Source: Patescibacteria group bacterium
GTDB lineage: Bacteria; Patescibacteriota; Patescibacteriia; UBA1558; GWA2-36-10
Direction: 5' to 3'
Assembly: GCA_018819405.1 (NCBI GenBank)
Contig: JAHJQF010000001.1
Location: 907,377 to 971,376, forward strand
DNA: 64,000 nucleotides
Shown: piece by piece, positions 3,648 through 63,096 of the stretch
How the letters are laid out: the number at the start of each line of letters is the position of its first letter
Numbering within the stretch: position 1 is the first letter of the stretch
The notes under the pieces: generated by a model
The model's database searches: none
What the model was told of the DNA's origin: nothing
What the model saw: the letters and a program-made list of their open reading frames with translations, nothing else
Position numbers and translations under genes: made by a program

Positions 3648-3678
3648 CCCGTTAGAAATTAATTATTAAATTTATCCT

Positions 3679-31435: not shown

Positions 31436-31547
31436 CCCGTTAGAAATTACTTTTGTAAAATATCTAATTGTTCTTTATATATTATCTAAATATACTTTTC
31501 CTAATTTATTACTCCCGTTGTCTATCATCTAATTTCTATAGGGAATA

Positions 31548-34550: not shown

Positions 34551-34627
34551 CCTGTTAGAAATTATAGTGAAATTAACTCTTTGTCCTTTATTTTTAGCCC
34601 CGCCAGTAAACATAAATTTCTAACGGG
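34551..34627. repeat. inverted pair of the CCCGTTAGAAAT-family motif (CCTGTTAGAAATT ... AAATTTCTAACGGG) filling the L16-L29 intergenic gap
   Basis: Direct read. Confidence 0.7.
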
Positions 34628-42098: not shown

Positions 42099-42324
42099 AT
42101 TACATTACTATAAAAAGTTCTTTAAAAGTGGGATTTCCCAGGTACAAACTTGGAGGTTGGAGAGCAGATAAACTAGCTAGATTTTATTGGGTCTCTACTC
42201 AACAATTTCAGCCTAATTATCTGGTCTAAGCTGGCTTCGGCCAAAAGCTAGACATCTCTCCTCCAAATTTGTGCCTGGAAAAATACTCCTGGTACAGCTC
42301 AACCCATCCAAGGAAGGAAACGCC

Positions 42325-42471
42325 ATGTTGGTACTGGCTTACTGCCTCTGCAAGCAGGCTCCCCGAGCCGCGGCCAAGGTCTCCTACCTGATGCTCTGCA
42401 CCATGGTCGGCCCGACCCTGATTCTCCTGTCCGCCATGATCGCAGGGATGATCTACTCCCTGCACCTCTAA
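42325..42471 (+). CDS. 48-aa hydrophobic Cys-rich peptide (MLVLAYCLCKQAPRAAAKVSYLMLCTMVGPTLILLSAMIAGMIYSLHL) with strong SD AAGGAAGGAAA
   Basis: SD 6 nt upstream. One predicted TM helix. GC-rich codons. Confidence 0.4.
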   Translation: MLVLAYCLCKQAPRAAAKVSYLMLCTMVGPTLILLSAMIAGMIYSLHL

Positions 42472-42586
42472 AGATCTGAACACAACACCAACACCCGCCA
42501 GGATCCCACCTTTCAAAGACCTATCTCGAATAGGCCCCCTCCTAAGTCTATAAAAAATTATAGATTTGGGAGGGATATAATAAGGC

Positions 42587-42625
42587 CCGGTAATTATTTA
42601 CCGGTCTTTATTTTATTTTTAAAAA
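42587..42625 (+). terminator. intrinsic terminator CCGGTAA ttat TTACCGG plus long T-run
   Basis: Direct read. Confidence 0.75.
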
Positions 42626-42678
42626 AATATATAATAAAATTAGTTCTTTCCACCACCCACACCTGAGGAGGTGAAACC

Positions 42679-42879
42679 ATGCTGGGCATAAAACAAAAAC
42701 AATGTTTAATCGAAGGCCTGACAAGGCAAATCCGAGAAATTCGTATCAAAAAAATAACTAATCCAGTACAGATAGAAAAAATTATCCTGTACGCTATGCA
42801 AATGCGCCGAGAAAATATAATAAATGATTTCCAAGAAATCGGCACAACCAACGCTGAATTATTATCCTGGCTACCCTAA
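42679..42879 (+). CDS. 66-aa hypothetical protein with strong SD (GAGGAGGTGA)
   Basis: SD. Followed by the terminator at 42922-42962. Confidence 0.5.
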   Translation: MLGIKQKQCLIEGLTRQIREIRIKKITNPVQIEKIILYAMQMRRENIINDFQEIGTTNAELLSWLP

Positions 42880-42921
42880 GGAGAAAGGCCTAAACATGTT
42901 ACCAACAACCTAAAACCACCT

Positions 42922-42962
42922 ACTTCACGGAAGATTGGGTGGTTTTATATTTGAAGATATCT
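42922..42962 (+). terminator. intrinsic terminator AAAACCACC...GGTGGTTTT plus T-run
   Basis: Direct read. Confidence 0.7.
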
Positions 42963-42984
42963 TAAATAAAATAACTTTTATTAG

Positions 42985-43013
42985 TTGACAAAAACTATAC
43001 AATATACTATGAT
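42985..43013 (+). promoter_or_regulatory. sigma70 promoter TTGACA-17-TATGAT. Downstream near-palindrome TGTCAATTGATA in the leader
   Basis: Direct read. Confidence 0.6.
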
Positions 43014-43069
43014 AACTCTCTGTAATGTTCCCTGTCAATTGATAACCTCAGACTCAAAGGAGTGAGTTC

Positions 43070-43480
43070 ATGCCACTTGAATTTCAGCTTTTGTCACTGA
43101 TTGAGCTACGCCAATACGTGGCTCAGCTCAACGAAAATTCTCATCCCGGGTTTGTGTTTCGTATCTTGGTACAGTGTCTGTGCCAGATAAAGGCCGGTGC
43201 TTGCTGGCCACAAATTGGCACGACCCAAGTCGACATGCAGACGCTGATGCGCGTCTGTCACAAAAACCAGGTGAGACGTGAACTTCAGGCCATCCTGGCC
43301 AAAAATGAGTACACACCGCTGAATTTTGATGACGCGGAAAAACTGAGCTGCATCATGGAGGAGATCCAGCAATGTCACATCAATTGGAATGATCTTCCTG
43401 TATCTGAGAATGTATTGAGACAAATCATCAATATGGCCGCTTGCGGCTATGAACACTGCAATCAGCAAAAAATGGCCTGA
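43070..43480 (+). CDS. 136-aa Cys-rich hypothetical protein (about 50% GC), SD AAGGAG
   Basis: Good RBS. Own promoter and terminator. No recognisable domain. Confidence 0.55.
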   Translation: MPLEFQLLSLIELRQYVAQLNENSHPGFVFRILVQCLCQIKAGACWPQIGTTQVDMQTLMRVCHKNQVRRELQAILAKNEYTPLNFDDAEKLSCIMEEIQQCHINWNDLPVSENVLRQIINMAACGYEHCNQQKMA

Positions 43481-43482
43481 GT

Positions 43483-43530
43483 CTCGCCCCGCCGAACGCT
43501 ATCAAGCGTGAGGCGGGGTTTCTTTTTTAT
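43483..43530 (+). terminator. intrinsic terminator CTCGCCCCGCC...GGCGGGGTTTCTTTTTTATTTT
   Basis: Direct read. Confidence 0.8.
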
Positions 43531-43689
43531 TTTAATTTTTGAGTAAAGACTTTTTGTAATACTTTTCAAAATTACTTTCAGCAAAAAAATCCCAGCCTCT
43601 TAGCCATATTTTTATTTTTCTTTTTAGCATAAACATATATTTTAATTAGCTATAATATACAACGAAAAAATAAAATAAAAGTAACAAAA

Positions 43690-43713
43690 AAGGAGCGGAC
43701 TGATGCCCGCTCC
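43690..43713 (-). terminator. terminator hairpin GGAGCGG..CCGCTCC plus T-run (minus strand) after cdd
   Basis: Direct read. Confidence 0.6.
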
Positions 43714-43724
43714 CGACCGAATCC

Positions 43725-44237
43725 TCACCTGAGGGTGAAAACATGAGGCAAAAGCACCCCGATACTTGCCCGAAAAACAAAGCCCTCGGTGTTGACCGAC
43801 AGAATCGGCACTCTATTGTCGCCGTTGCAGTGCTCGCTGATAATCTGACGACAATCGCCACATGATGTGACCATACTACTGACATTAATCTTGCCCAGAT
43901 CAATGTCTTTGGGTGTCAGATTGAACTCACGATCAGCAGTCGCACCAGCCAAAACCAACATCCTAATATTGAGTTGTCCGCTGACTACCATGGCCGCTAG
44001 AGCTGAACGCTCGGCATGAGTGACTTTGTAGTGGGCGTACTCCACATTGCATCCGTAAAAAACGACGTTACTCTGACTGACCAGAGCACAGCCCACCTTG
44101 AAACCGGAATACGGAGCATAGGCATTACGCCTAGCATTGATAGCCTGCTGAACCAGGCCACGCCCGTCTGCTGACGACATGTCAGAAAAATGGAAAATTT
44201 CCACATCCCCGACCCGATGAATCTTGCTTGCCTGCAT
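43725..44237 (-). CDS. cdd: cytidine deaminase (start at MQASKIHRV with SD GAGGAGG)
   Basis: NAYAPYSGFKVGCAL, GCNVEYAHY, HAERSAL, SCGDCRQII zinc-ligand motifs. About 50% GC. Confidence 0.8.
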   Translation of the reverse strand: MQASKIHRVGDVEIFHFSDMSSADGRGLVQQAINARRNAYAPYSGFKVGCALVSQSNVVFYGCNVEYAHYKVTHAERSALAAMVVSGQLNIRMLVLAGATADREFNLTPKDIDLGKINVSSMVTSCGDCRQIISEHCNGDNRVPILSVNTEGFVFRASIGVLLPHVFTLR

Positions 44238-44320
44238 GACTAGCCTCCTCGTTTGTGCCATATACCTCTGGACAGAACTAAACTGGCTATAAATTAGCAA
44301 TAAAATATTTTTCTGTCAAA

Positions 44321-44349
44321 CCGCGTTAGAAAAATTTTTTCTAACGCGG
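44321..44349. repeat. palindrome CCGCGTTAGAAAAA/TTTTTTCTAACGCGG (CCCGTTAGAAAT-family variant)
   Basis: Direct read. Confidence 0.7.
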
Positions 44350-47083: not shown

Positions 47084-47512
47084 TTATTTTTTAGCTGCTC
47101 TTTCTCTTTTGGCGCCATAAATTGAGCGACCTTGCTTTCTATTGGCTACGCCCTGAGTATCAAAAATACCACGAACAATATGATAACGGACACCTGGCAA
47201 ATCTTTTACCCTACCGCCGCGAATCATAACAATACTGTGCTCCTGCAAATTGTGGCCTTCACCTGGAATATAAGCAGTCACTTCCATACCATTTGACAAT
47301 CTAACCCTGGCAATTTTTCGAAGAGCTGAGTTTGGTTTCTTAGGTGTTGTGGTAGTAACTTTTAAACATACTCCACGTTTAAAAGGAGAGCCTTGTGGCA
47401 TTTCTCTTTTTCTTCTTTTCAAACTATTTAAAACAGTTTTTAAAGCCGGGGTAGTGCCCTTGGCCTTTTGCTGTTTTCTAGGTTTTTTGATTAATTGATT
47501 TACTGTTGGCAT
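47084..47512 (-). CDS. rpsL: 30S ribosomal protein S12
   Basis: [14 protein letters not shown]. Confidence 0.95.
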
Positions 47513-47546
47513 ATTTAACTTAAAAAATAAAAAATACGACTGTTCT

Positions 47547-47576
47547 TCCCGCGTAGCGGGATCCCGCTACGCGGGA
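47547..47576. promoter_or_regulatory. perfect 30-bp GC palindrome TCCCGCGTAGCGGGA|TCCCGCTACGCGGGA in the rpsL leader, followed by a U-run on the mRNA strand (attenuator/terminator or operator)
   Basis: Direct read. Confidence 0.6.
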
Positions 47577-47638
47577 AAAGTCCCCAATAAAATAGCATAA
47601 AAAAATATATAAGTCAAGAATAATAGCCAAAATTAATA

Positions 47639-47681
47639 CCCCTCCCCCTTAGATTTTGTGAATCTTTGGAGGAGGGGCGGG
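47639..47681 (-). terminator. hairpin CCCCTCCCCC...GGAGGAGGGG after the GC-rich lipoprotein gene
   Basis: Direct read, one mismatch. Confidence 0.5.
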
Positions 47682-47706
47682 TTTCAGGCCCTAATGAGAG
47701 ACCTGA

Positions 47707-48360
47707 CTAGTCGATCAGGACGTAGTCGGTGATGTCGCCGTTGTAGACATCGCGGACCTTGATATTGTCCTCATCCCAGGCTCCGACAAAGGTCGGAGGC
47801 GTGCCGAACTGAGTGTTGTTGCGCACTTCAAACCAGGCGTACTCGCCGCGAGTAGTCCAGGTCGGGTAATCCCCTCCGATCTTGACGTGATCACCGAATG
47901 GCACACCATTCGATTCTCCCGTGTAGCCCCAAGGATAGCCCGGCTCAGTGCTGTAGACAGCCCCTAAACCACTGTCGACGAGAGTCCAGCCATTGACATC
48001 GCTGGTGGTCACGGTGAAAGGTAGCTGGTAGCCCCGAGCTTCGCCAGAAGGATAGACCTTCTGGTAAAACATCACTGCCCAGTAGCCAGTGGCGTAACCG
48101 TAGGGCGAACGGGAGCGAGTCAGAATGATTGTGTCAGGATCGGCAGTTTTCAGAACGGACTGAATACCCTGCCAGGTCGAACTGTCCTCCGCACTCCGAG
48201 AGGCCACGTTCATGACATCCTCGAAGCCGCCGCTCTGGTTGGTCGCGTTGACCTGATCGACGATCGAGGTCTCCGGAGCCGTGGTCTGGTCCATGTTGCT
48301 GCAGCCGGTCAGCCAGGCGAGGCAAACCAGCATTAAAGTGATTGCGATGATTCGCTTCAT
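47707..48360 (-). CDS. GC-rich (about 58%) lipoprotein (lipobox LTGCS), unknown function
   Basis: Signal peptide MKRIIAITLMLVCLAWLTGCSN. Protein-like composition. GC content strongly atypical for the genome. Confidence 0.6.
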   Translation of the reverse strand: MKRIIAITLMLVCLAWLTGCSNMDQTTAPETSIVDQVNATNQSGGFEDVMNVASRSAEDSSTWQGIQSVLKTADPDTIILTRSRSPYGYATGYWAVMFYQKVYPSGEARGYQLPFTVTTSDVNGWTLVDSGLGAVYSTEPGYPWGYTGESNGVPFGDHVKIGGDYPTWTTRGEYAWFEVRNNTQFGTPPTFVGAWDEDNIKVRDVYNGDITDYVLID

Positions 48361-48640
48361 GGTTAGACTTCTCCTTGTCTCAGATACAATAGTTTTGCCT
48401 CATTGAGGCGCTTCGAAAAACTGCAGGTGTGAATACACTGCTGTTCATGCTCTTACGGGTAGCGCAACCCCCCTTAACGCTTTTTAACTCCTTTACAAGG
48501 CAAATCAATTTCCATGTTCAAGGCAAGTTGTCGAGCAAAAGTTGCGTGAAATCTATAAATTAATCCTGTGACCAGGAAAAAATGCAACGAACTTTTACAA
48601 ACAATTATAAAAAATACACTAAAAATAAATTCTTGTCAAT

Positions 48641-48673
48641 AAAAAGAGCCCCCGCAGCATAAGCCGTGGGGGC
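48641..48673 (-). terminator. GC hairpin terminator (GCCCCCGCAGC...GCCGTGGGGGC plus U-run)
   Basis: Direct read. Confidence 0.6.
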
Positions 48674-48716
48674 CTGTCGATCACTCTACGACCACGTGAG
48701 GCCAATGCGGCCTGGG

Positions 48717-48827
48717 TCAGGCGATCGTCACCTCGCTCGCCGTCGTCTTCTTGACGGTCTTCTTCTTGGTAGCCTTCTTGGCGACCATCTTCATCTGCAT
48801 CTGGACACTGGGTCTTCGTCGATTCAT
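48717..48827 (-). CDS. 36-aa lysine-rich peptide MNRRRPSVQMQMKMVAKKATKKKTVKKTTASEVTIA with SD AAGGAGGA
   Basis: Strong SD 8 nt upstream. Flanked by terminators on both sides. The upstream 43 codons of the track ORF are AT-rich non-coding-like. Confidence 0.45.
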   Translation of the reverse strand: MNRRRPSVQMQMKMVAKKATKKKTVKKTTASEVTIA

Positions 48828-48929
48828 ATTGGGAATCCTCCTTATGGTATCACAATGACAGACAAATGTGCTGACTATGATAGCCAGCACGCGAGTATAT
48901 TTATAATAACATAAGCAAAAAAAACAAAC

Positions 48930-49006
48930 AATAAAAAAGAGCCCCCGCGGAAGCACCTCACTGGGCGCGATACTGAGATCGCGTGCAGAGGGTGCCCCGC
49001 GGGGGC
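48930..49006 (-). terminator. compound GC hairpin terminator (GCCCCCGCGG...CCGCGGGGGC) plus U-run
   Basis: Direct read. Confidence 0.6.
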
Positions 49007-49082
49007 CAGCAGCCTGATTGGCCAGCTTGGCGATGGGCGTATAGCCCGTGAAGACGCTGGCGACAGGCCGAAGCGCGTCACC

Positions 49083-49175
49083 TTACTGGGTCTCCAGCCC
49101 AGGGGTGACAGGCGTGGTCATCGGAGGCGCGTCGGACGCCTCGGCAGGAACATCGGGCAGGGTCCAGAAGAGCAT
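49083..49175 (-). CDS. 30-aa peptide MLFWTLPDVPAEASDAPPMTTPVTPGLETQ (SD GGAAAGGAG). Start overlaps the upstream stop (ATGATG)
   Basis: Paralogous N-terminus to 49175..49330. Confidence 0.3.
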   Translation of the reverse strand: MLFWTLPDVPAEASDAPPMTTPVTPGLETQ

Positions 49176-49330
49176 CATCGCTCCTTTCCGGCAACTGCCG
49201 AAGGTTGTCTGTAGCGCTCGGTCCATACGCCGGCCTCAACGGCGCGGTACCACCTGTGGCACGAACTGTTTCCGACGAGCTTAGTCGCCGGGTTCGCACC
49301 CGAATCGTCGGGAAGGAGCCAGTAGAGCAC
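49175..49330 (-). CDS. 51-aa peptide (GTG start) VLYWLLPDDSGANPATKLVG... (SD GAAAGGAG)
   Basis: DNA around the start about 80% identical to the next ORF start. The SD region is also palindromic, so it may be RNA structure instead. Confidence 0.25.
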   Translation of the reverse strand: MLYWLLPDDSGANPATKLVGNSSCHRWYRAVEAGVWTERYRQPSAVAGKER

Positions 49331-49415
49331 TGCTTCTCCTTTCGACTGGTTGTGTAGCTCCGAAGTGGAGCTACATGGTGCGGCTAGCTAGCCGCCGGGG
49401 CGCTGGCGCCCAGGT

Positions 49416-49523
49416 CTAGCTGCCGCGCCGCCGGCCGCGGACGTCGGTCGTGGAGGTGTTGCCCATGAGCACGAAATAGTTCGTGTAAGTGGCGACCGGA
49501 CGGCCGCGGATGTGGATCGACAT
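49416..49523 (-). CDS. 35-aa peptide MSIHIRGRPVATYTNYFVLMGNTSTTDVRGRRRGS (SD GGGAGGA). Member of the M-x-I-R-x-R-G-R-P short-ORF family
   Basis: SD 6 nt upstream. DNA about 80% identical over the first 10 codons to 54092..54136. Confidence 0.4.
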   Translation of the reverse strand: MSIHIRGRPVATYTNYFVLMGNTSTTDVRGRRRGS

Positions 49524-49678
49524 TGGGATCCTCCCGTCGTTGCATCATGGCAGGTTTTGTCCAGACTAGCTGGACGCTACATCCCACTTGGGGATACCAT
49601 TTTCCGTTGCTTAGACTTGTTGCGTATTCACTAGGAAATGATCGGGCGACTAAAAATATTTTTTAATCACGATTTTGT

Positions 49679-49706
49679 ATTATAGCACAAATAAAAAATT
49701 TGTCAA
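49679..49706 (-). promoter_or_regulatory. sigma70 promoter TTGACA-16-TATAAT whose -35 is embedded in the palindrome TTTGTCA-n8-TGACAAA (49699-49720)
   Basis: Direct read on the minus strand. Confidence 0.65.
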
Positions 49707-49739
49707 GAGCCCCTGACAAACCTTTTAAAAATACCAAAA

Positions 49740-50378
49740 ATGGGTATTTTATATAAATCTAGAAATAAAATTGATAAAAAAGTCAAAAATATGCCCAAAA
49801 ATATTAATGTTCATAAAATTATCCAAAATTATCAAAACTATCAATATCCAAGGCCCATTTATAGTAAATTTACGCTTAAATTCGTCAAAATGAGCTGGCA
49901 AAAAGGCAAAAAGCACTTTGGAGCCATCAAGTGGTGGAATAGGTATAAGATTAAAAACTCCCAATATAAGATTGACTAATATCAAATAAAACAAAAATAT
50001 AAAAACTAGATTATCAATAGGCAAAAACTTGAGCAAAAAATTAGCAATTATTATAAATAAAGCTACATTAATAAAGTTGGAAAGCGGACCAGCCAGTGAC
50101 ACAAAAGCATCTCCCCAACGACGCCAACGAAGATTATAAGTATTGACCGGTACTGGTTTGCCCCAACCAAAACCGGCGAAAAGGAGCATCAAGGTACCCA
50201 AAAACTCCATATGAGCCAAAGGATTGAGAGTCAAACGACCATTTTGACTAGGGGTATTGTCTCCCAAATAATGAGCCGCCAAAGCATGAGCAAACTCATG
50301 AATAGTTAAAGCATATATAATAGATAAAATAACTATTAAAAATATTTTTGGATCGCTAAATAATGTGGAAATTAACAT
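49740..50378 (-). CDS. M50-family site-2 protease (HEFAH zinc motif), AT-rich native gene
   Basis: HEFAHALAAH. Multi-TM. Confidence 0.7.
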
Positions 50379-50659: not shown

Positions 50660-50673
50660 ATTATTTTTTTCAA

Positions 50674-50712
50674 CCGTCCCCTCATAGCAGGGGGCGGTTT
50701 TTTAATTTTTTG
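50674..50712 (+). terminator. rpmB terminator (CCGTCCCC..GGGGCGG plus T-run)
   Basis: Direct read. Confidence 0.7.
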
Positions 50713-50765
50713 AATAAAAATAAAGCGGGCGCCTGATGACATACATGATGCAAAAGTGGCGCCCG
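50712..50765 (-). terminator. terminator of the GC-rich gene (GCGGGCGCC...GGCGCCCG plus U-run)
   Basis: Direct read. Confidence 0.6.
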
Positions 50766-50785
50766 GAAAAGGGTCTTGGGCCAAA

Positions 50786-51085
50786 CTACCTGCTACTAGC
50801 GCAGGCCATGACGATCTTCTTGATCAGTCTCCTGACAGGGTGAGCCCTGATCAGCTCATCGCCGATGATCTGGTAGTGTCTTCCCTCACCATGAGGATCG
50901 AGATAGACCAGACGGGTCCGCGTATCCCAGATGGGCCAAGGTTGGCCTGCTCTGCGCAGACGACCGGTCGAGACATAGTCTCTTCCATCATAGCTCTGCT
51001 CTTCCACCAGTTCAACCGATGAAAAATTGTTGGGAAAAGGCACCCAACGGCGTCCGTCAATCGTCGCCCCAGCTTGTTTCGACAC
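50786..51085 (-). CDS. GC-rich (about 55%) hypothetical protein, about 100 aa, GTG start with SD GGAGG
   Basis: SD plus GTG. Own terminator. No recognisable domain. Confidence 0.4.
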   Translation of the reverse strand: MSKQAGATIDGRRWVPFPNNFSSVELVEEQSYDGRDYVSTGRLRRAGQPWPIWDTRTRLVYLDPHGEGRHYQIIGDELIRAHPVRRLIKKIVMACASSR

Positions 51086-51486
51086 AAGTAACCTCCAGTG
51101 TTTGTTTGGGCCAATATATGTGGCTGATAAAGCCACGGGATGAACAAAATATATTTTACAATACCACTCTTTGCAATTTTGGTCAATTATAAAAACCCCT
51201 GGCCTAAACTCGGGGTAAAAACAAAAAGGCGTTGTTATAGTTTGAAAAACTAATAAAACACCTTTTTGCTAGCCATTTTGTTGCATGAATTTGTGCCTTA
51301 GTAATTAATGACTATTGTAGCTTTGCTTTTTTATATGTATAACCCCTTTGTAAAAGGGTGGTGCTCGCAGACTAAAGGCCCCAGCCCAAGACAATATAAA
51401 GCACCAAGGCAATAATGTTGTAGAGTTACATATGTTAAAAAGAAGCTACATTTATAATATAACATCTTTTAAAAATCATTGCAAAA

Positions 51487-51513
51487 CCCGTTAGAAATAT
51501 TATTTCTAACGGG
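51487..51513. repeat. perfect palindrome CCCGTTAGAAAT att ATTTCTAACGGG
   Basis: Direct read. Confidence 0.8.
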
Positions 51514-52592: not shown

Positions 52593-52672
52593 TGGCGAGC
52601 GTCCCATCTTTGGGTTCAATTGGGGCAGTGTCTGCCCCTTTTATAGCTCGCTGAGACCCGCCGGTTTTGGTG

Positions 52673-53167
52673 TTAGGCCGCCATCAGGCGGCCAGGCCTA
52701 TTGCCGGGCGGGACGTCTTCCCTGCCGCCGTAATGGCCGAGGATGGAGCTCTTGTTCATCGTCACCTGGTAGTAGTCCCAGATGGCATCACCGGCCGAAG
52801 CCGACACACACAGTGCGCTCAGTGAGCTGGGAATCTTGATATATACCGGATCCAGATTGCTGACGACGCTGGAGCTCTTGTAGTAGAGCCCAACGGCATC
52901 ACCGGCCGAAGCCGCCACACACAGTGCGCTCATGTTACAGGACTCGTTGATCTTCTTCAGGACGACGGTCGTAGTGTTCGCCGTCGTGTCCATGTGATTG
53001 GCGATCGCCACGGCGATGTCCGTGCCGTCGGTGACCGCATACCACAGGTCGTTCTTCGCGTAACTGACCTGGCTGGCCATCGCGCCGCAAGCAAGCAGCA
53101 TGATGACGGCCACCAGAGCCAGAGCGGCGCCCATCATCAGACGCGAGGGTCCACGAATGTGATGCAT
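52673..53167 (-). CDS. GC-rich (about 62%) lipoprotein with internal duplicated motif SALCV(A/S)ASAGDA(V/I)..YY
   Basis: Signal peptide and lipobox ALALVAVIMLLACGAMA. SD GGGAGGAAG. Confidence 0.55.
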   Translation of the reverse strand: MHHIRGPSRLMMGAALALVAVIMLLACGAMASQVSYAKNDLWYAVTDGTDIAVAIANHMDTTANTTTVVLKKINESCNMSALCVAASAGDAVGLYYKSSSVVSNLDPVYIKIPSSLSALCVSASAGDAIWDYYQVTMNKSSILGHYGGREDVPPGNRPGRLMAA

Positions 53168-53409
53168 GTCTTCCTCCCTGAATGGGGACTAAAATGACTA
53201 CCTAAGGTAGCCGGCGAATGATACTCGGTTAAAAAACCTCCTTGGCTTTTGGTCTCACTATAATGAGTATACTTCCATAGGAAATATACTCGTGAAATTG
53301 TACAATACATATTTGAACATACAATATTTTGTAAATTCTGTCAATAACTATAAAAAATTCTACCCTGACCCAAGCTACTAAGTTTTATAGCTAATCTTCA
53401 TCACTTTTG

Positions 53410-53467
53410 GATAAAATCTATAAAAGAAAACCGGGCGAAACTCACTATGTGAAGCTTGTCTCGCCCG
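53410..53467 (-). terminator. cassette unit-1 terminator (CCGGGCGA..TCGCCCGG plus U-run)
   Basis: Direct read. Confidence 0.6.
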
Positions 53468-53661
53468 GTCAGGTGGTTGGCCCGAAGGCCACCGGATCGC
53501 TGTGCGATCATTTTTTGAGCCATTGGGCTCGAAGAAAAGAATATTGGGATTTTTGGAGATGGGCCTTGAGTCGCTTAAGTGCCCGGTCAGTTGGCCCGAT
53601 TACTCTGGCCGAGCTAAAGGTGGAATCGAAGCTTCATCGGCGACCTCGCTGGTCAGGCGGT

Positions 53662-53739
53662 TCATGCGGCCTTCGTGGCTGTACGGCGACGCAGCTCGGC
53701 GACGGTCTCCCTCGGGGGTCCAGTGTTTCGAATCTTCAT
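53662..53739 (-). CDS. 25-aa peptide MKIRNTGPPRETVAELRRRTATKAA (SD GGAAGGAG). Short-ORF family member
   Basis: SD 7 nt upstream. RBS region homologous to 49524-49545 and 54137-54160. Confidence 0.35.
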   Translation of the reverse strand: MKIRNTGPPRETVAELRRRTATKAA

Positions 53740-53876
53740 GATCAGACTCCTTCCTCGAGTCGCTTCAGAAAATTCCCGCCAAAATTAGCGGCATAGGAGA
53801 TGTGGCTCCTTCCAATATCGGCTGGGCTCCTGCCCTCCCCTATAGACCAACAGATCTAGCGAGAACGGCTGTTTTT

Positions 53877-53905
53877 ATGATACCAAGTGCCCTAAAATTA
53901 GTCAA
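53877..53905 (-). promoter_or_regulatory. sigma70 promoter TTGACT-17-TATCAT inside the conserved ATTGACTAATTT box
   Basis: Direct read. Confidence 0.55.
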
Positions 53906-53915
53906 TATAATAATC

Positions 53916-53969
53916 TAAACAAAAAAATACCGGACAAAACTCGCTCTTGGAGCTAAGTCTTGCCCGGCT
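53916..53969 (-). terminator. cassette unit-2 terminator (CCGGACAA..CTTGCCCGG plus U-run)
   Basis: Homologous to 53430-53467. Confidence 0.55.
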
Positions 53970-54091
53970 TGCATCGCTGTAGATAGTCTCACCTGACCCC
54001 AGGTAATATTCCCCTACGAGGGGATCGTGAGAGTTGACTGGTTCGTAAGCGAAGGTCATCCTCTCCAACTAACGCTGGGAACTTTAGGAAG

Positions 54092-54136
54092 TCAGGCGTT
54101 GTCCCCGATGGGACGTCCACGGATGCGGATAGCCAC
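54092..54136 (-). CDS. 14-aa peptide (GTG) MAIRIRGRPIGDNA (SD GAAAGGAG). Truncated paralog of 49416..49523
   Basis: 17/20-nt identity with the start of 49416..49523. Confidence 0.3.
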   Translation of the reverse strand: MAIRIRGRPIGDNA

Positions 54137-54204
54137 GATATGGCTCCTTTCGTCGAGTCACTTCATACGTCGTTCCCACCATTACTGGCAGGAGTGGCTC
54201 TCTT

Positions 54205-54233
54205 AAGATATCAATCGCTATTAAATTAGTCAA
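54205..54233 (-). promoter_or_regulatory. promoter TTGACT-17-TATCTT (ATTGACTAATTT box, second copy)
   Basis: Direct read. Confidence 0.4.
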
Positions 54234-54239
54234 TAAATT

Positions 54240-55037
54240 TTAAAAACTAAAACTAATAGTACCTAAGTCCTGAGTATTTTCTATTTCACACCCTACTTTT
54301 TTCAATCTTTCTATTGCTTCCTGATGCGGGTGGCCAAATTTATTGTCCAAGCCAGATTGAATAATACAAAATTCGGGCTGTACAGCCTGCAAAAACTCTA
54401 GTGATGAAGAATATTTACTACCATGATGGCCGACTTTTAGATACTGGGAATTTAAATCAAAACCACCGGACAATAACTTTTGTTCCCCTTCTATTGGCAA
54501 ATCTCCCATCAATAAAACATTTTTATCTTTATAGCTTAGTTTTATAACTACTGAGTTTTCATTGAAATCTTCATGCCAGTAGTCAGCTAAAAGAACCCTA
54601 AAATATAAATCATCGGAAAACATAAAACTCTCGCCTGCTTGTACAATTTGTGGTTGGATATTATTTTCTTGTAATTTTTGGGTAAAGATATTATACAAAA
54701 AATGATCGGGCTGGTGATTACTCACCAAAACATGTTTTACTTCGTACTTTTCTAAAAGCTCTACAAAACCCATCATATGATCATCATGCCAATGAGTAAT
54801 AATCAAATAATCAATCGTGTCCTCCCACCAAGGAAGTTTGTCGGCCATTTGGGACAAGAGCAGATTGTCCGGCCCGCCGTCTATCAAAATATTTTGACCA
54901 TCAGGAGTACGAATTAAAATTGCATCACCTTGCCCAACATCCAAAAAATTAATCGCTAGTTTATTTTCTATTCTATAAAAAGAAAAAAATAAAGCTGACA
55001 AAATTATTAGGGTTATAAAAAATATTGTTTTATTCAT
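54240..55037 (-). CDS. ComEC C-terminal metallo-beta-lactamase domain protein (separate ORF with N-terminal TM)
   Basis: THWHDDHMMG motif, GHHGSKYSS. Confidence 0.75.
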   Translation of the reverse strand: MNKTIFFITLIILSALFFSFYRIENKLAINFLDVGQGDAILIRTPDGQNILIDGGPDNLLLSQMADKLPWWEDTIDYLIITHWHDDHMMGFVELLEKYEVKHVLVSNHQPDHFLYNIFTQKLQENNIQPQIVQAGESFMFSDDLYFRVLLADYWHEDFNENSVVIKLSYKDKNVLLMGDLPIEGEQKLLSGGFDLNSQYLKVGHHGSKYSSSLEFLQAVQPEFCIIQSGLDNKFGHPHQEAIERLKKVGCEIENTQDLGTISFSF

Positions 55038-62810: not shown

Positions 62811-63096
62811 GCCATCTACCTCCTTGAAAAGAACAAACTTTGAAACTATCAAAAAAACTCTCACTAAGGAGAGTGGTGACAAAATTATTAAGCTTTAATA
62901 AATTCATCCTTTTGCTCCTTAGGCAAAGAATAAAACTCAGGTGTCGGACTTGTTCTCCCTACATTGGAGACTTACCGTAGCTAGGACTGCGGAGGATTTG
63001 CACCTCACTTCCCTGATTGAATTGTCAAAGTGAATTTATCTTAACACAGAGTAAAACGATTGACAACTGTCTGTGACCTTATACATTGTTGATAAG

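Follow-up and report, generated by a model that had tools for sequence, protein, structure and literature searches.

The M50-rpsL interval holds three tandem transcription units

We analysed a stretch of 64 kb (hereafter the window) from contig JAHJQF010000001.1 of a Patescibacteria group bacterium, a member of the candidate phyla radiation (CPR), in which the interval 47520-49740, between a Peptidase_M50 gene and rpsL, is occupied by an array of three tandem transcription units on the minus strand (Table 1). We propose, with a probability of about 0.5, that three autonomous accessory units, specific to the lineage and similar to the morons of phages, are arranged in tandem in the interval. 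Each unit has a sigma-70-like promoter (only a putative one in the case of unit 2) and an intrinsic terminator, and every open reading frame (ORF) of the array is preceded, 5-10 nt upstream of its start, by a Shine-Dalgarno (SD) sequence of the AAGGAG or GGAGG type. The original prediction, made from the letters alone, had listed a promoter with its palindrome, small ORFs, terminators and a lipoprotein gene, all of which lie on the minus strand where it had placed them, and its claim of a strong SD at every unit holds for every ORF. Its description of the region as a cassette array is apt in the sense that autonomous units are inserted between native genes. On the plus strand of the interval, there is no SD-led ORF of at least 25 codons and promoter-like sites are only weak (9/12 matches).

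The array stands out by its composition, in blocks. The GC content is 36.4% over the window and 52.6% over the interval as a whole; it reaches 61% in the body of unit 1 (64% over the span of its ORFs), 54% in the ORF of unit 2 and 57% in the lipoprotein coding sequence (CDS), and falls to 28-41% in the promoter, leader and terminator spacers that separate these blocks. The stretch of 58-65% GC described in the original prediction thus corresponds to real GC-rich blocks (54-64%) but is not uniform. The genes around the array, identified by Pfam in the window and in a syntenic relative, encode ribosomal protein L28, ndk, a response regulator, a metallo-beta-lactamase-fold protein and ribosomal proteins.

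At the upstream border, the palindrome that had been taken for an operator is indeed present, at the centre of an AU-rich hairpin followed by a T run. However, it is not found at the homologous promoters of two related loci, L088 and L002, and it reads equally well as a terminator; the hairpin is probably the terminator of the M50 gene, overlapping the next -35 box. A third relative, L009, has an analogous terminator whose loop holds the next -35. At the downstream border stands the native rpsL promoter. Just past it, the rpsL leader forms a perfect 14-bp palindromic hairpin (TTCCCGCGTAGCGGGATCCCGCTACGCGGGAA, 47546-47577, minus strand), which is not kept in relatives, where other hairpins or none are found.

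Table 1. Features of the M50-rpsL interval and of the surrounding window (positions in the 64 kb window)
Feature	Position	Strand	Description
Peptidase_M50 gene	49749-50378		Pfam; array starts past its stop codon
AU-rich hairpin	49692-49727	-	16 pairs, then T run; palindrome TTTGTCA-n8-TGACAAA at 49699-49720; overlaps unit 1 -35
Unit 1 promoter	49679-49706	-	TTGACA, 16-nt spacer, TGcTATAAT; 12/12 consensus matches and extended -10
Unit 1 transcript	48933-49672	-	about 740 nt, 61% GC
ORF35	49416-49523	-	MSIHIRGRPVATYTNYFVLMGNTSTTDVRGRRRGS (MSIHIRGRPV...); SD GGGAGG 6 nt upstream; isoelectric point (pI) 11.7
ORF51	49175-49330	-	VLYWLLPDDSG...; GTG start; SD AAAGGAG 5 nt upstream
ORF30	49083-49175	-	MLFWTLPDVPAEASDAPPMTTPVTPGLETQ (MLFWTLPD...); SD AAAGGAG inside ORF51 3' end
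Unit 1 terminator	48941-49007	-	long GC-rich hairpin with inner hairpin, z = -4.2; T6 at 48940-48933
Unit 2	48645-48931	-	promoter, leader with hairpin 48890-48868, lysine-rich ORF, terminator
Unit 2 putative weak promoter	48931-48903	-	TTGTTT, 17-nt spacer, TGtTATTAT; read from sequence
K-ORF36	48717-48827	-	MNRRRPSVQMQMKMVAKKATKKKTVKKTTASEVTIA; lysine-rich, 36 aa; SD AAGGAGG; pI 11.8; GC at third codon positions (GC3) 0.81
Unit 2 terminator	48641-48674	-	GGCCCCC...GCGGGGGC and T5; abuts lipoprotein promoter
Lipoprotein promoter	48611-48639	-	TTGACA, 17-nt spacer, TATTTT; 10/12 matches; kept in L088
Lipoprotein 5' leader	48361-48605	-	245 nt, 41% GC
Lipoprotein gene	47707-48360	-	217 aa; signal peptide; lipobox LTGC; beta-rich mature part
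Lipoprotein terminator	47639-47677	-	hairpin CCCCTCCTCC...GGGGGAGGGG, z = -4.8; homologous hairpin in L088
rpsL promoter and leader hairpin	47546-47617	-	TTGACT, 17-nt spacer, TATTTT with TG; native; downstream border of insert
rpsL	47084-47512	-	followed by rpsG, fusA, tuf onward: str/S10/spc ribosomal-protein region
Island gene cda	43725-44237		
Island 136-aa ORF	43070-43480	+	kept in L088
Island ORF of about 98 aa	50786-51082		
Island lipoprotein-like ORF KKH39_04985	52673-53167	-	164 aa; SD-led; GC3 0.78
Island micro-ORFs	53.7 and 54.1 kb		
Repeat TTTCTAACGGG	293-303, 407-417, 2423-2527, 3648-3658, 31436-31446, 34551-34627, 44322-44348, 51487-51513		sites of the 11-mer

The lipoprotein of unit 3 belongs to a vertically inherited orphan family

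The product of unit 3 (N-terminus MKRIIAITLMLVCLAWLTGC), whose lipobox L-T-G-C fits the pattern [LVI][ASTVI][GAS]C, is identical to the NCBI entry 'hypothetical protein KKH39_04955 [Patescibacteria group bacterium]'. A word-based search recovered, besides the protein, a single homologue (49% identity), and a HMMER profile search of 1.8 billion representative proteins added three more true members, with E-values from 1e-129 to 3e-25. The family has five members (P0001, P0002, P0007, P0008 and P0009), all with a Cys-containing box and having in common, in the mature domain, the motifs DPDT(L/I)xL, (A/V)RGYxLPF, EPG and HxKxG and the C-terminal RDxxNGxIxDYVLID. Its function could not be recognised by any of our searches, as had been anticipated for both the lipoprotein and the small peptides: there is no Pfam, NCBIfam, PHROG or PDB-sequence relative beyond the signal peptide, the NCBIfam and PHROG lipoprotein models matching only residues 1-30/70. 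AlphaFold2 models were beta-rich, with a predicted local distance difference test (pLDDT) score of 38 from a two-sequence alignment and 49.6 from a five-sequence alignment, and Foldseek returned no match in the PDB at E <= 0.001, only generic beta-sandwiches. The three family collections, searched with all ORFs, returned matches at the level of signal peptides only. Exact-protein look-ups of rpsL and P0004 gave no further context.

The gene is under purifying selection: between the window copy and its L002 orthologue, pN is 0.35 and pS is 0.83, that is, saturated. The identities among the window, L088 and L002 (51/52/43% for the lipoprotein and 72/68/64% for the M50 protease) follow the same ranking, which argues that the lipoprotein gene was already present in the common ancestor of the three lineages, and lipoprotein distances are congruent with those of both M50 and L28. 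The lipoprotein is thus a real orphan family, vertically inherited.

The leader of the gene has features of its own. It contains an AAAGGAG box (48494-48488) without a usable start codon, followed by a terminator-like hairpin with a U5 run at 48441-48416. The first ~190 nt are kept at the nucleotide level in L088, and the succession of an AAAGGAG box, a hairpin and a U run is also found in L002 (2072-2278), L088 (9748-10000) and L092 (1-154). Once aligned, these four leaders are too divergent for covariation. Judging from its sequence, the leader probably acts as a transcription attenuator.

The M50-rpsL boundary is an insertion hot spot

Using the M50 protein as query, we recovered 80 loci (loci are numbered L0xx here, and proteins P0xxx), among which M50 followed by rpsL is the conserved order. 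The gap between the two genes is 94-221 nt in eight relatives (L010, L012 and the L015-L020 region), 407, 552, 924, 1512, 2267 and 3168 nt in L005, L006, L007, L008, L009 and L013, respectively, and 2237 nt in the window. The rpsL promoter segment is kept in L005-L009 and L012; in L004 and L011 it directly adjoins the stop codon of M50. The inserts themselves are mutually unrelated; they include short RNA-like units, enriched in GC and each with a TTGACA promoter and a terminator of its own, prs in L008 and larger genes in L013. For example, the 2.3-kb array of L009 (10600-12860), which is strikingly like that of the window, contains a small membrane ORF, two units that lack ORFs, a gene for a secreted protein and an SD-led ORF of 27 aa rich in lysine and asparagine, and the insert of L007 ends in an SD-led ORF of 41 aa rich in glutamine and arginine; SD-led micro-ORF units built in the same way are found in L088, L007 and L009. 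Since both gap and insert content vary among relatives, the M50-rpsL site is an insertion-tolerant operon boundary that has repeatedly hosted such mini-units. One of the ORF-less transcripts of L009 (11258-11790, ~530 nt) has the same promoter type as unit 1 and an 11-bp long-range closing helix, and is a candidate novel non-coding RNA without a match in Rfam.

The lipoprotein gene is found at this site in several relatives. L088, an NCBI metagenome-assembled genome with a 138-kb contig, is fully syntenic with the window: comEC, the metallo-beta-lactamase-fold gene, the response regulator, ndk, L28, M50, 580 nt, the lipoprotein gene, rpsL, rpsG and fusA. Between M50 and the lipoprotein gene, L088 has one 250-nt unit with the promoter type and the terminator-promoter junction of the window, whose body cannot be aligned with the window and encodes an unrelated SD-led ORF of 25 aa. 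In L002, L001, L003 and L086, which represent three to four independent assemblies, M50 is followed by a 200-nt element, the lipoprotein gene and the promoter of unit 1, driving a GC-rich RNA that runs off the contig 340 nt into the unit 1 homologue in the L002-type contigs; in L092, the GC-rich lipoprotein gene precedes an AT-rich rpsL-type promoter. The borders of the slot are kept while the interiors get replaced. The family also has one member outside an AT-rich CPR context: P0008, encoded on a contig of 55% GC (L090/L091), of which positions 1-1521 of L090 hold four overlapping SD-led orphan genes. The genes next to that of P0008 are orphans. L090 is possibly a phage or another mobile element. 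Blastn against phages and plasmids, and a scan of viral contigs with the lipoprotein profile, found nothing.

These data also bear on the possibility that the segment was joined to the contig by misassembly with DNA from a high-GC organism. The sharp GC contrast is what such a chimera would produce, but the blocks of high GC measure 110-720 nt and are interspersed with host-type AT-rich promoters and terminators, and the same gene order with GC-enriched lipoprotein genes recurs in independent ENA, JGI, Logan and NCBI assemblies. Moreover, proteins of the window are on record on contigs of 1,035,872 and 1,035,212 bp, and a relative at least 90% identical to a neighbouring island protein lies on a contig of 847,426 bp. 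The alternation of signals and bodies, together with four independent orthologous loci, excludes misassembly, to which we leave a practically nil probability; contamination, raised in the original prediction as an alternative, is refuted because L002, L088 and L092 all have the lipoprotein at the corresponding locus, its promoter and leader being conserved.

Unit 1 probably encodes three small proteins

The 31-mer of the unit 1 promoter (CTTGACAAATTTTTTATTTGTGCTATAATAC) occurs once in the window, and a copy identical at 30/31 positions is found in L002; with four positions left free, L009 and the phage-like contig L084 are matched as well, and a scan of metagenomes returned L002-type contigs and one phage-like contig, nothing more. 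A similar promoter follows M50 in L088. L084 is an AT-rich, phage-like metagenome contig with tail-fibre-like and portal-like ORFs, and has the promoter sequence (TTGACAAAATTTTTATTTGTGCTATAATAC) at 2695-2725, upstream of a gene.

The transcript would consist of a 150-nt leader, ORF35, two strong hairpins, ORF51, ORF30, a 3' untranslated region (UTR) and a terminator whose 3' arm and tail (GCGGGGGCTCTTTTTTATTG) are similar to the unit 2 terminator. The ATG of ORF30 overlaps the stop codon of ORF51 as TGATG. The density of SD-led ORFs, which the original prediction had found unusual, is far above chance: three SD-led ORFs of at least 25 codons are observed in the body of unit 1 against a mean of 0.07 in 3000 dinucleotide shuffles, none of which reached three (P < 1/3000). 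In all three, the third codon position is the GC-richest phase (for ORF35, GC1/2/3 = 0.50/0.56/0.92). The peptides of the array are hydrophilic (grand average of hydropathy, GRAVY, from -0.03 to -0.81), have no transmembrane stretch and mostly have a pI of 9-11.8, ORF30 being acidic.

Two paralogous relationships link these ORFs to each other and to the rest of the window. ORF51 and ORF30 have only their first 8 residues in common, (V/M)L(Y/F)W(L/T)LPD. The N-terminal motif of ORF35, I(H/R)IRGRP, recurs with an SD and a start codon in a 14-codon ORF (MAIRIRGRPIGDNA) at 54091-54135 on the minus strand, a paralogue of the first 10 codons of ORF35 (alignment z = 5.5); over the I-x-I-R-G-R-P codons, three of the four nucleotide differences are synonymous. 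This ORF lies in a second GC-rich unit with its own promoter and terminator (53925-54240, minus strand), and the next unit (53400-53925) contains SD-led ORFs of 9 and 25 codons, one of which reads MKIRNTGPP.... Elsewhere, the motifs are rare: six-frame regular-expression and nhmmer searches for IRGRP and LxWxLPD across 1.4 Mb of related loci returned the copies in the window and L002 only, and L[YF]WxLPD was found nowhere else in these loci. In L002, the counterpart of ORF35 has 7 codons (MIHPHPP*), with the same nucleotide patches kept. Exact look-ups of the micro-ORFs in protein collections gave no record, a word-based search with ORF51 gave no candidate, and tblastn of the island and family proteins against units 1 and 2, run as a pseudogene test, gave no significant match.

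Unit 1 may alternatively be one large structured non-coding RNA. GC-rich islands in AT-rich genomes usually are structured RNAs, and the ORFs would then be by-products of GC richness and the SD-like boxes structural elements or binding sites for a protein or rRNA. The fold of the whole transcript (738 nt) is 5.5 standard deviations better than that of shuffles (z = -5.5), with highly stable hairpins inside and after ORF35; the micro-ORFs have no protein homologues; the ORF35 frame is broken in L002, where the patches GGGAGG..ATCCAC..CATCCGC..GACGTCC persist with non-triplet indels; and the ORF-less transcript of L009 offers a precedent with the same promoter type. Yet a sliding-window fold locates the excess structure in hairpins inside ORF35 and immediately downstream of it (z of -5.3 and -3.3, 49500-49276) and at the terminators, whereas z is ~0 over ORF51 and ORF30, as in the lipoprotein coding region. 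Scanning the whole window with Rfam gave no match in the interval at gathering thresholds, and at E <= 5 the 41.8-54.6 kb region gave only chance-level matches (E 1.7-4.9, about half the gathering score or less). No Rfam family was found in the inserts of L002 and L004-L010, and ARAGORN found no tRNA or tmRNA. The body of unit 1 cannot be aligned with those of L009, L088 and L002 (z 0.3-1.9), and its three SD boxes all precede the ORFs counted above. The restriction of structure to local hairpins, the SD/ORF statistics, the GC3 phasing and the TGATG coupling lead us to favour a small polycistronic mRNA with structured spacers, and we regard a structured RNA, first in order among the alternatives, as unlikely. 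On the same grounds, including the lack of excess structure over ORF51 and ORF30, the micro-ORFs are probably translated.

A second alternative accepts translation and gives the peptides a role in cis: ORF35 and its 14-codon paralogue, maybe also ORF51 and ORF30, would be regulatory leader peptides whose nascent M-x-I-H/R-I-R-G-R-P chain, with R-x-R at codons 6-8, stalls or paces ribosomes and thereby remodels the following hairpins, so as to set the level of translation further downstream or of read-through toward the lipoprotein gene. In macrolide-sensing leaders such as ErmDL, stalling takes place at an R-x-R motif that occupies codons 6-8, and the likeness to Erm/Cat and pyrBI-type attenuators extends to the conservation of the first ~9 codons of a short upstream ORF, to hairpins that engage this ORF and the next ribosome-binding site and to the SD boxes and terminator hairpins of the lipoprotein leaders (L002, L088 and L092 included). 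Indeed, only the first 8-10 codons are kept between paralogues, with tails of different lengths (35 vs 14 aa and 51 vs 30 aa); differences within the motif are mainly synonymous; the arm encoding codons 5-10 of ORF35 pairs with that encoding codons 27-32; the SD and start codon of ORF51 are sequestered in an 11-bp hairpin; and the short counterpart in L002 ends in Pro-Pro-stop. In contrast to the known attenuators, no regulated resistance, biosynthetic or transport gene is present downstream: ORF51 and ORF30 are orphans followed by a strong terminator, and the lipoprotein gene is served by a separate, conserved promoter. ORF35 ends 83 nt ahead of ORF51 and an alternative-pairing design is neither evident nor demonstrated, nothing but ~200 nt and a terminator comes after the 54.1-kb paralogue, and the ORF35 motif has no match in the 1.4 Mb of related loci outside L002. 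The strong terminator, the independent promoter and the lack of an evident target lead us to place small proteins first; leader peptides, which the original prediction had mentioned, survive for ORF35 as a serious minority reading, unlikely and second among the alternatives.

A further possibility is one that the original prediction had proposed, a system of precursors of ribosomally synthesized and post-translationally modified peptides (RiPPs) or of small toxins. Several SD-led small ORFs in a row, paralogous N-termini with variable C-termini that superficially resemble a leader/core organisation and the adjoining M50 metalloprotease gene could all suggest it. However, no YcaO, radical-SAM, lanthionine-synthetase, ABC-transporter or immunity gene was found among the Pfam families of the neighbours in the window or in L088, on which ground a RiPP cluster was rejected; the M50 gene sits by rpsL in relatives without any insert and is thus not part of the cassette; the common 'leader' amounts to 8-10 residues, with no orthologues found and the ORFs not kept in homologous cassettes. 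A type I toxin-antitoxin system was rejected as well, the peptides being hydrophilic and without a transmembrane stretch and the plus strand of the interval offering only the weak promoter-like sites given above. We consider RiPPs and membrane toxins very improbable; the products would rather be small, basic and hydrophilic accessory peptides.

Unit 2 probably encodes a lysine-rich peptide whose core has a counterpart in a relative

Unit 2 contains a single ORF, K-ORF36. Its promoter is read with less assurance than those of units 1 and 3 because it falls below the threshold of the promoter scan. The core of K-ORF36 aligns in frame with the 27-aa ORF of L009 (MIVTSKTNKNTTAKKKNGNFGASAAIT, GC3 0.93), which is likewise located just upstream of the rpsL promoter; the alignment of the two coding sequences has a z of 6-8 relative to shuffles and the UTRs are dissimilar. 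The junction between the unit 2 terminator and the lipoprotein promoter (CTCTTTTTATTGACA) is kept in L088. For both this core and the ORF35 N-terminus at 54.1 kb, conservation is confined to the coding parts, with unrelated UTRs in the case of the K-ORF.

Island genes differ from native genes in SD usage and GC3

The particular composition of the array is not confined to the M50-rpsL interval. Of the 62 native ORFs in the window, 52 lack an SD-like motif, and the GC3 of native genes ranges from 0.12 to 0.41, near 0.27, whereas the ORFs of GC-rich islands (42226-44300, 47520-49740, 50660-51190 and 52620-54240) all have an SD of 5-6 nt and a GC3 of 0.55-0.92. The core genes of L004-L008 and L088 are likewise SD-poor, in line with the reported lack of a detectable anti-SD in the 16S genes of about half of Parcubacteria (PMC9297842). 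The lipoprotein orthologues of four lineages have a GC3 of 0.71, 0.50, 0.62 and 0.88, against 0.27-0.43 in their neighbours, which have no SD, despite saturated synonymous divergence. Among the island genes, KKH39_04985 (MBU1203367.1), located about 4 kb upstream of the lipoprotein gene KKH39_04955, starts with MHHIRGPS, akin to the IRGRP motif, and contains two 56-nt direct repeats of 88% identity (52766-52821 and 52877-52932) coding SALCV(A/S)ASAGDA; the gene is not present in the syntenic L088.

This split would be explained if the units of high GC had been acquired horizontally in recent times, as phage morons or captured foreign DNA, and still bore the unameliorated composition of a GC-rich donor that uses SDs. 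GC content, GC3 and SD usage are all sharply unlike those of the host genome, the distribution among relatives is patchy and centred on a hot spot, P0008 is encoded on a contig of tightly overlapping SD-led orphan genes that is phage- or mobile-like in look, and a phage-like contig likewise contains the sequence of the unit 1 promoter. On the other hand, searches of 5.8 and 1.8 billion proteins turned up no homologue from a GC-rich taxon, and phage, plasmid and viral collections gave no match; L090 itself is only a putative phage or mobile element. Furthermore, lipoprotein distances parallel those of M50, GC3 stays at 0.50-0.88 in four lineages whose synonymous sites are saturated, and promoter and leader have been inherited along with the lipoprotein gene. 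We therefore consider a recent origin of the units from such a donor doubtful, below both the structured RNA and the leader peptides.

The split may instead result from selection, for example on structured, stable mRNAs that need an SD or on a specialised translation regime, or from continual exchange with a GC-richer mobile pool of the L090 kind. It is tempting to speculate that the array is one visible piece of a second 'genetic dialect' in an SD-less, AT-rich CPR genome, in which accessory surface-protein and micro-peptide genes would be held GC3-rich and SD-dependent by selection rather than by recent transfer; we regard this as a doubtful proposal, to be held tentatively.

Other features of the window

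An 11-mer, TTTCTAACGGG, occurs 12 times in the window with at most one mismatch, against ~1 expected. It forms tight inverted pairs (hairpins after fusA and ndk) and wider inverted pairs 66-115 nt apart, and is also found singly just ahead of start codons. It could be a repeat akin to repetitive extragenic palindromic (REP) sequences or miniature inverted-repeat transposable elements (MITEs), or a regulatory repeat. A cobalamin riboswitch aptamer lies at 62919-63050 on the minus strand (Rfam RF00174, 35.5 bits, above the gathering threshold).

Discussion

The data establish the anatomy of the interval, its non-random SD-led ORFs, the lipoprotein as a real gene that descends vertically, the insertion hot spot and the split in composition and SD usage; translation of the micro-ORFs, the nature of their products and the attenuating role of the lipoprotein leader are inferred. 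In the model that we favour, the three units would occupy an insertion-tolerant operon boundary of a CPR chromosome, from the end of M50 to the str-operon promoter. Unit 3 would be ancestral, a vertically inherited gene for a surface lipoprotein of predicted beta-rich fold with a long leader that probably attenuates transcription. Unit 1 would be a tricistronic micro-ORF mRNA (35, 51 and 30 aa) whose last two ORFs are translationally coupled, and unit 2 a monocistronic gene for a lysine-rich peptide of 36 aa. Translation of the array ORFs would depend on strong SDs, which the native genes of the genome lack; these are presumably needed because GC-rich messages fold around their own start codons. 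The micro-ORF content would turn over fast between related genomes, with the promoter and terminator modules of the borders and the lipoprotein persisting. As to their function, the peptides are probably nucleic-acid- or ribosome-associated, or surface-interaction factors.

Several observations weigh against this model. (i), The micro-ORFs have no homologue in protein collections, although this is weak evidence because gene callers did not call such ORFs. (ii), The micro-ORFs are not conserved in the homologous cassettes: the slot of L088 holds its unrelated 25-aa ORF and the L002 counterpart of ORF35 stops at 7 codons, so purifying selection on any whole peptide is not shown. (iii), The paralogue pairs share only their first 8-10 codons, which also fits duplicated translation-initiation modules or regulatory leader peptides; N-terminal conservation of this sort is compatible with young small-protein genes born from duplicated initiation modules, with leader peptides and with constraints at the RNA level. 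(iv), The AlphaFold2 model of the lipoprotein is of low confidence. (v), A 16S 3' end, sought as evidence of an anti-SD, was present in none of the loci analysed, and about half of the 16S genes of Parcubacteria reportedly have no detectable anti-SD (PMC9297842).

Comparison with described systems helps to situate the array. Several of its properties are those of bacterial small-ORF mRNAs: SD-led ORFs of 30-51 codons, TGATG coupling, absence from gene calls and restriction to a lineage. However, the array has no homology to any described small-protein family, its codon usage and its reliance on SDs are unlike those of the host genome and its turnover is very fast. Like the cassettes of integrons, the units are co-oriented, short, compositionally odd and mostly orphan genes at one hot spot with hairpins at their ends. 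However, they have their own promoters, their end hairpins are followed by U tracts and are thus intrinsic terminators rather than attC sites, and there is neither attI nor any integrase family in the syntenic 20-kb locus; an integron cassette array was rejected on these grounds.

The closest known concept, by analogy, would be the phage moron, here in a CPR chromosome. Morons are autonomous extra transcription units of lambdoid prophages, such as HK97 and HK022, and often encode small lipoproteins; the concept reportedly goes back to Juhala and Hendrix in 2000. The array resembles them in having short genes bounded by a sigma-70 promoter and a factor-independent terminator of their own (seen for units 1 and 3, with a putative promoter in unit 2) and an atypical composition (54-64% vs 36% GC), inserted between genes that are adjacent in relatives. 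It differs from them in its location, the str ribosomal-protein region, where the flanks (M50, L28, ndk, rpsL, rpsG and fusA) include no phage genes, in the vertical inheritance of the lipoprotein and an atypical composition that lasts over saturating divergence, and in that several units encode peptides of 30-51 aa only.

As it stands, the array is a well-documented curiosity and not a new system. The lipoprotein nevertheless defines a new orphan family and is a plausible cell-surface factor of an episymbiont. The split between an SD-less, AT-rich core and SD-led, GC3-rich accessory genes bears on translation initiation in Parcubacteria and on how compositional predictors of 'genomic islands' are to be read in these genomes. 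Should the second dialect prove true, it could point to a specialised initiation mode, to stress-resistant GC-rich mRNAs or to expression tuned to a GC-richer, SD-using partner cell, and it is through the promoter- and terminator-bounded slots that fast-evolving micro-ORFs would be exchanged. Provided that they are translated, the micro-ORFs would add to the almost unexplored small-protein repertoire of CPR bacteria and would reveal a compact, moron-like mode of gene addition to a streamlined chromosome, inside its ribosomal-protein region.

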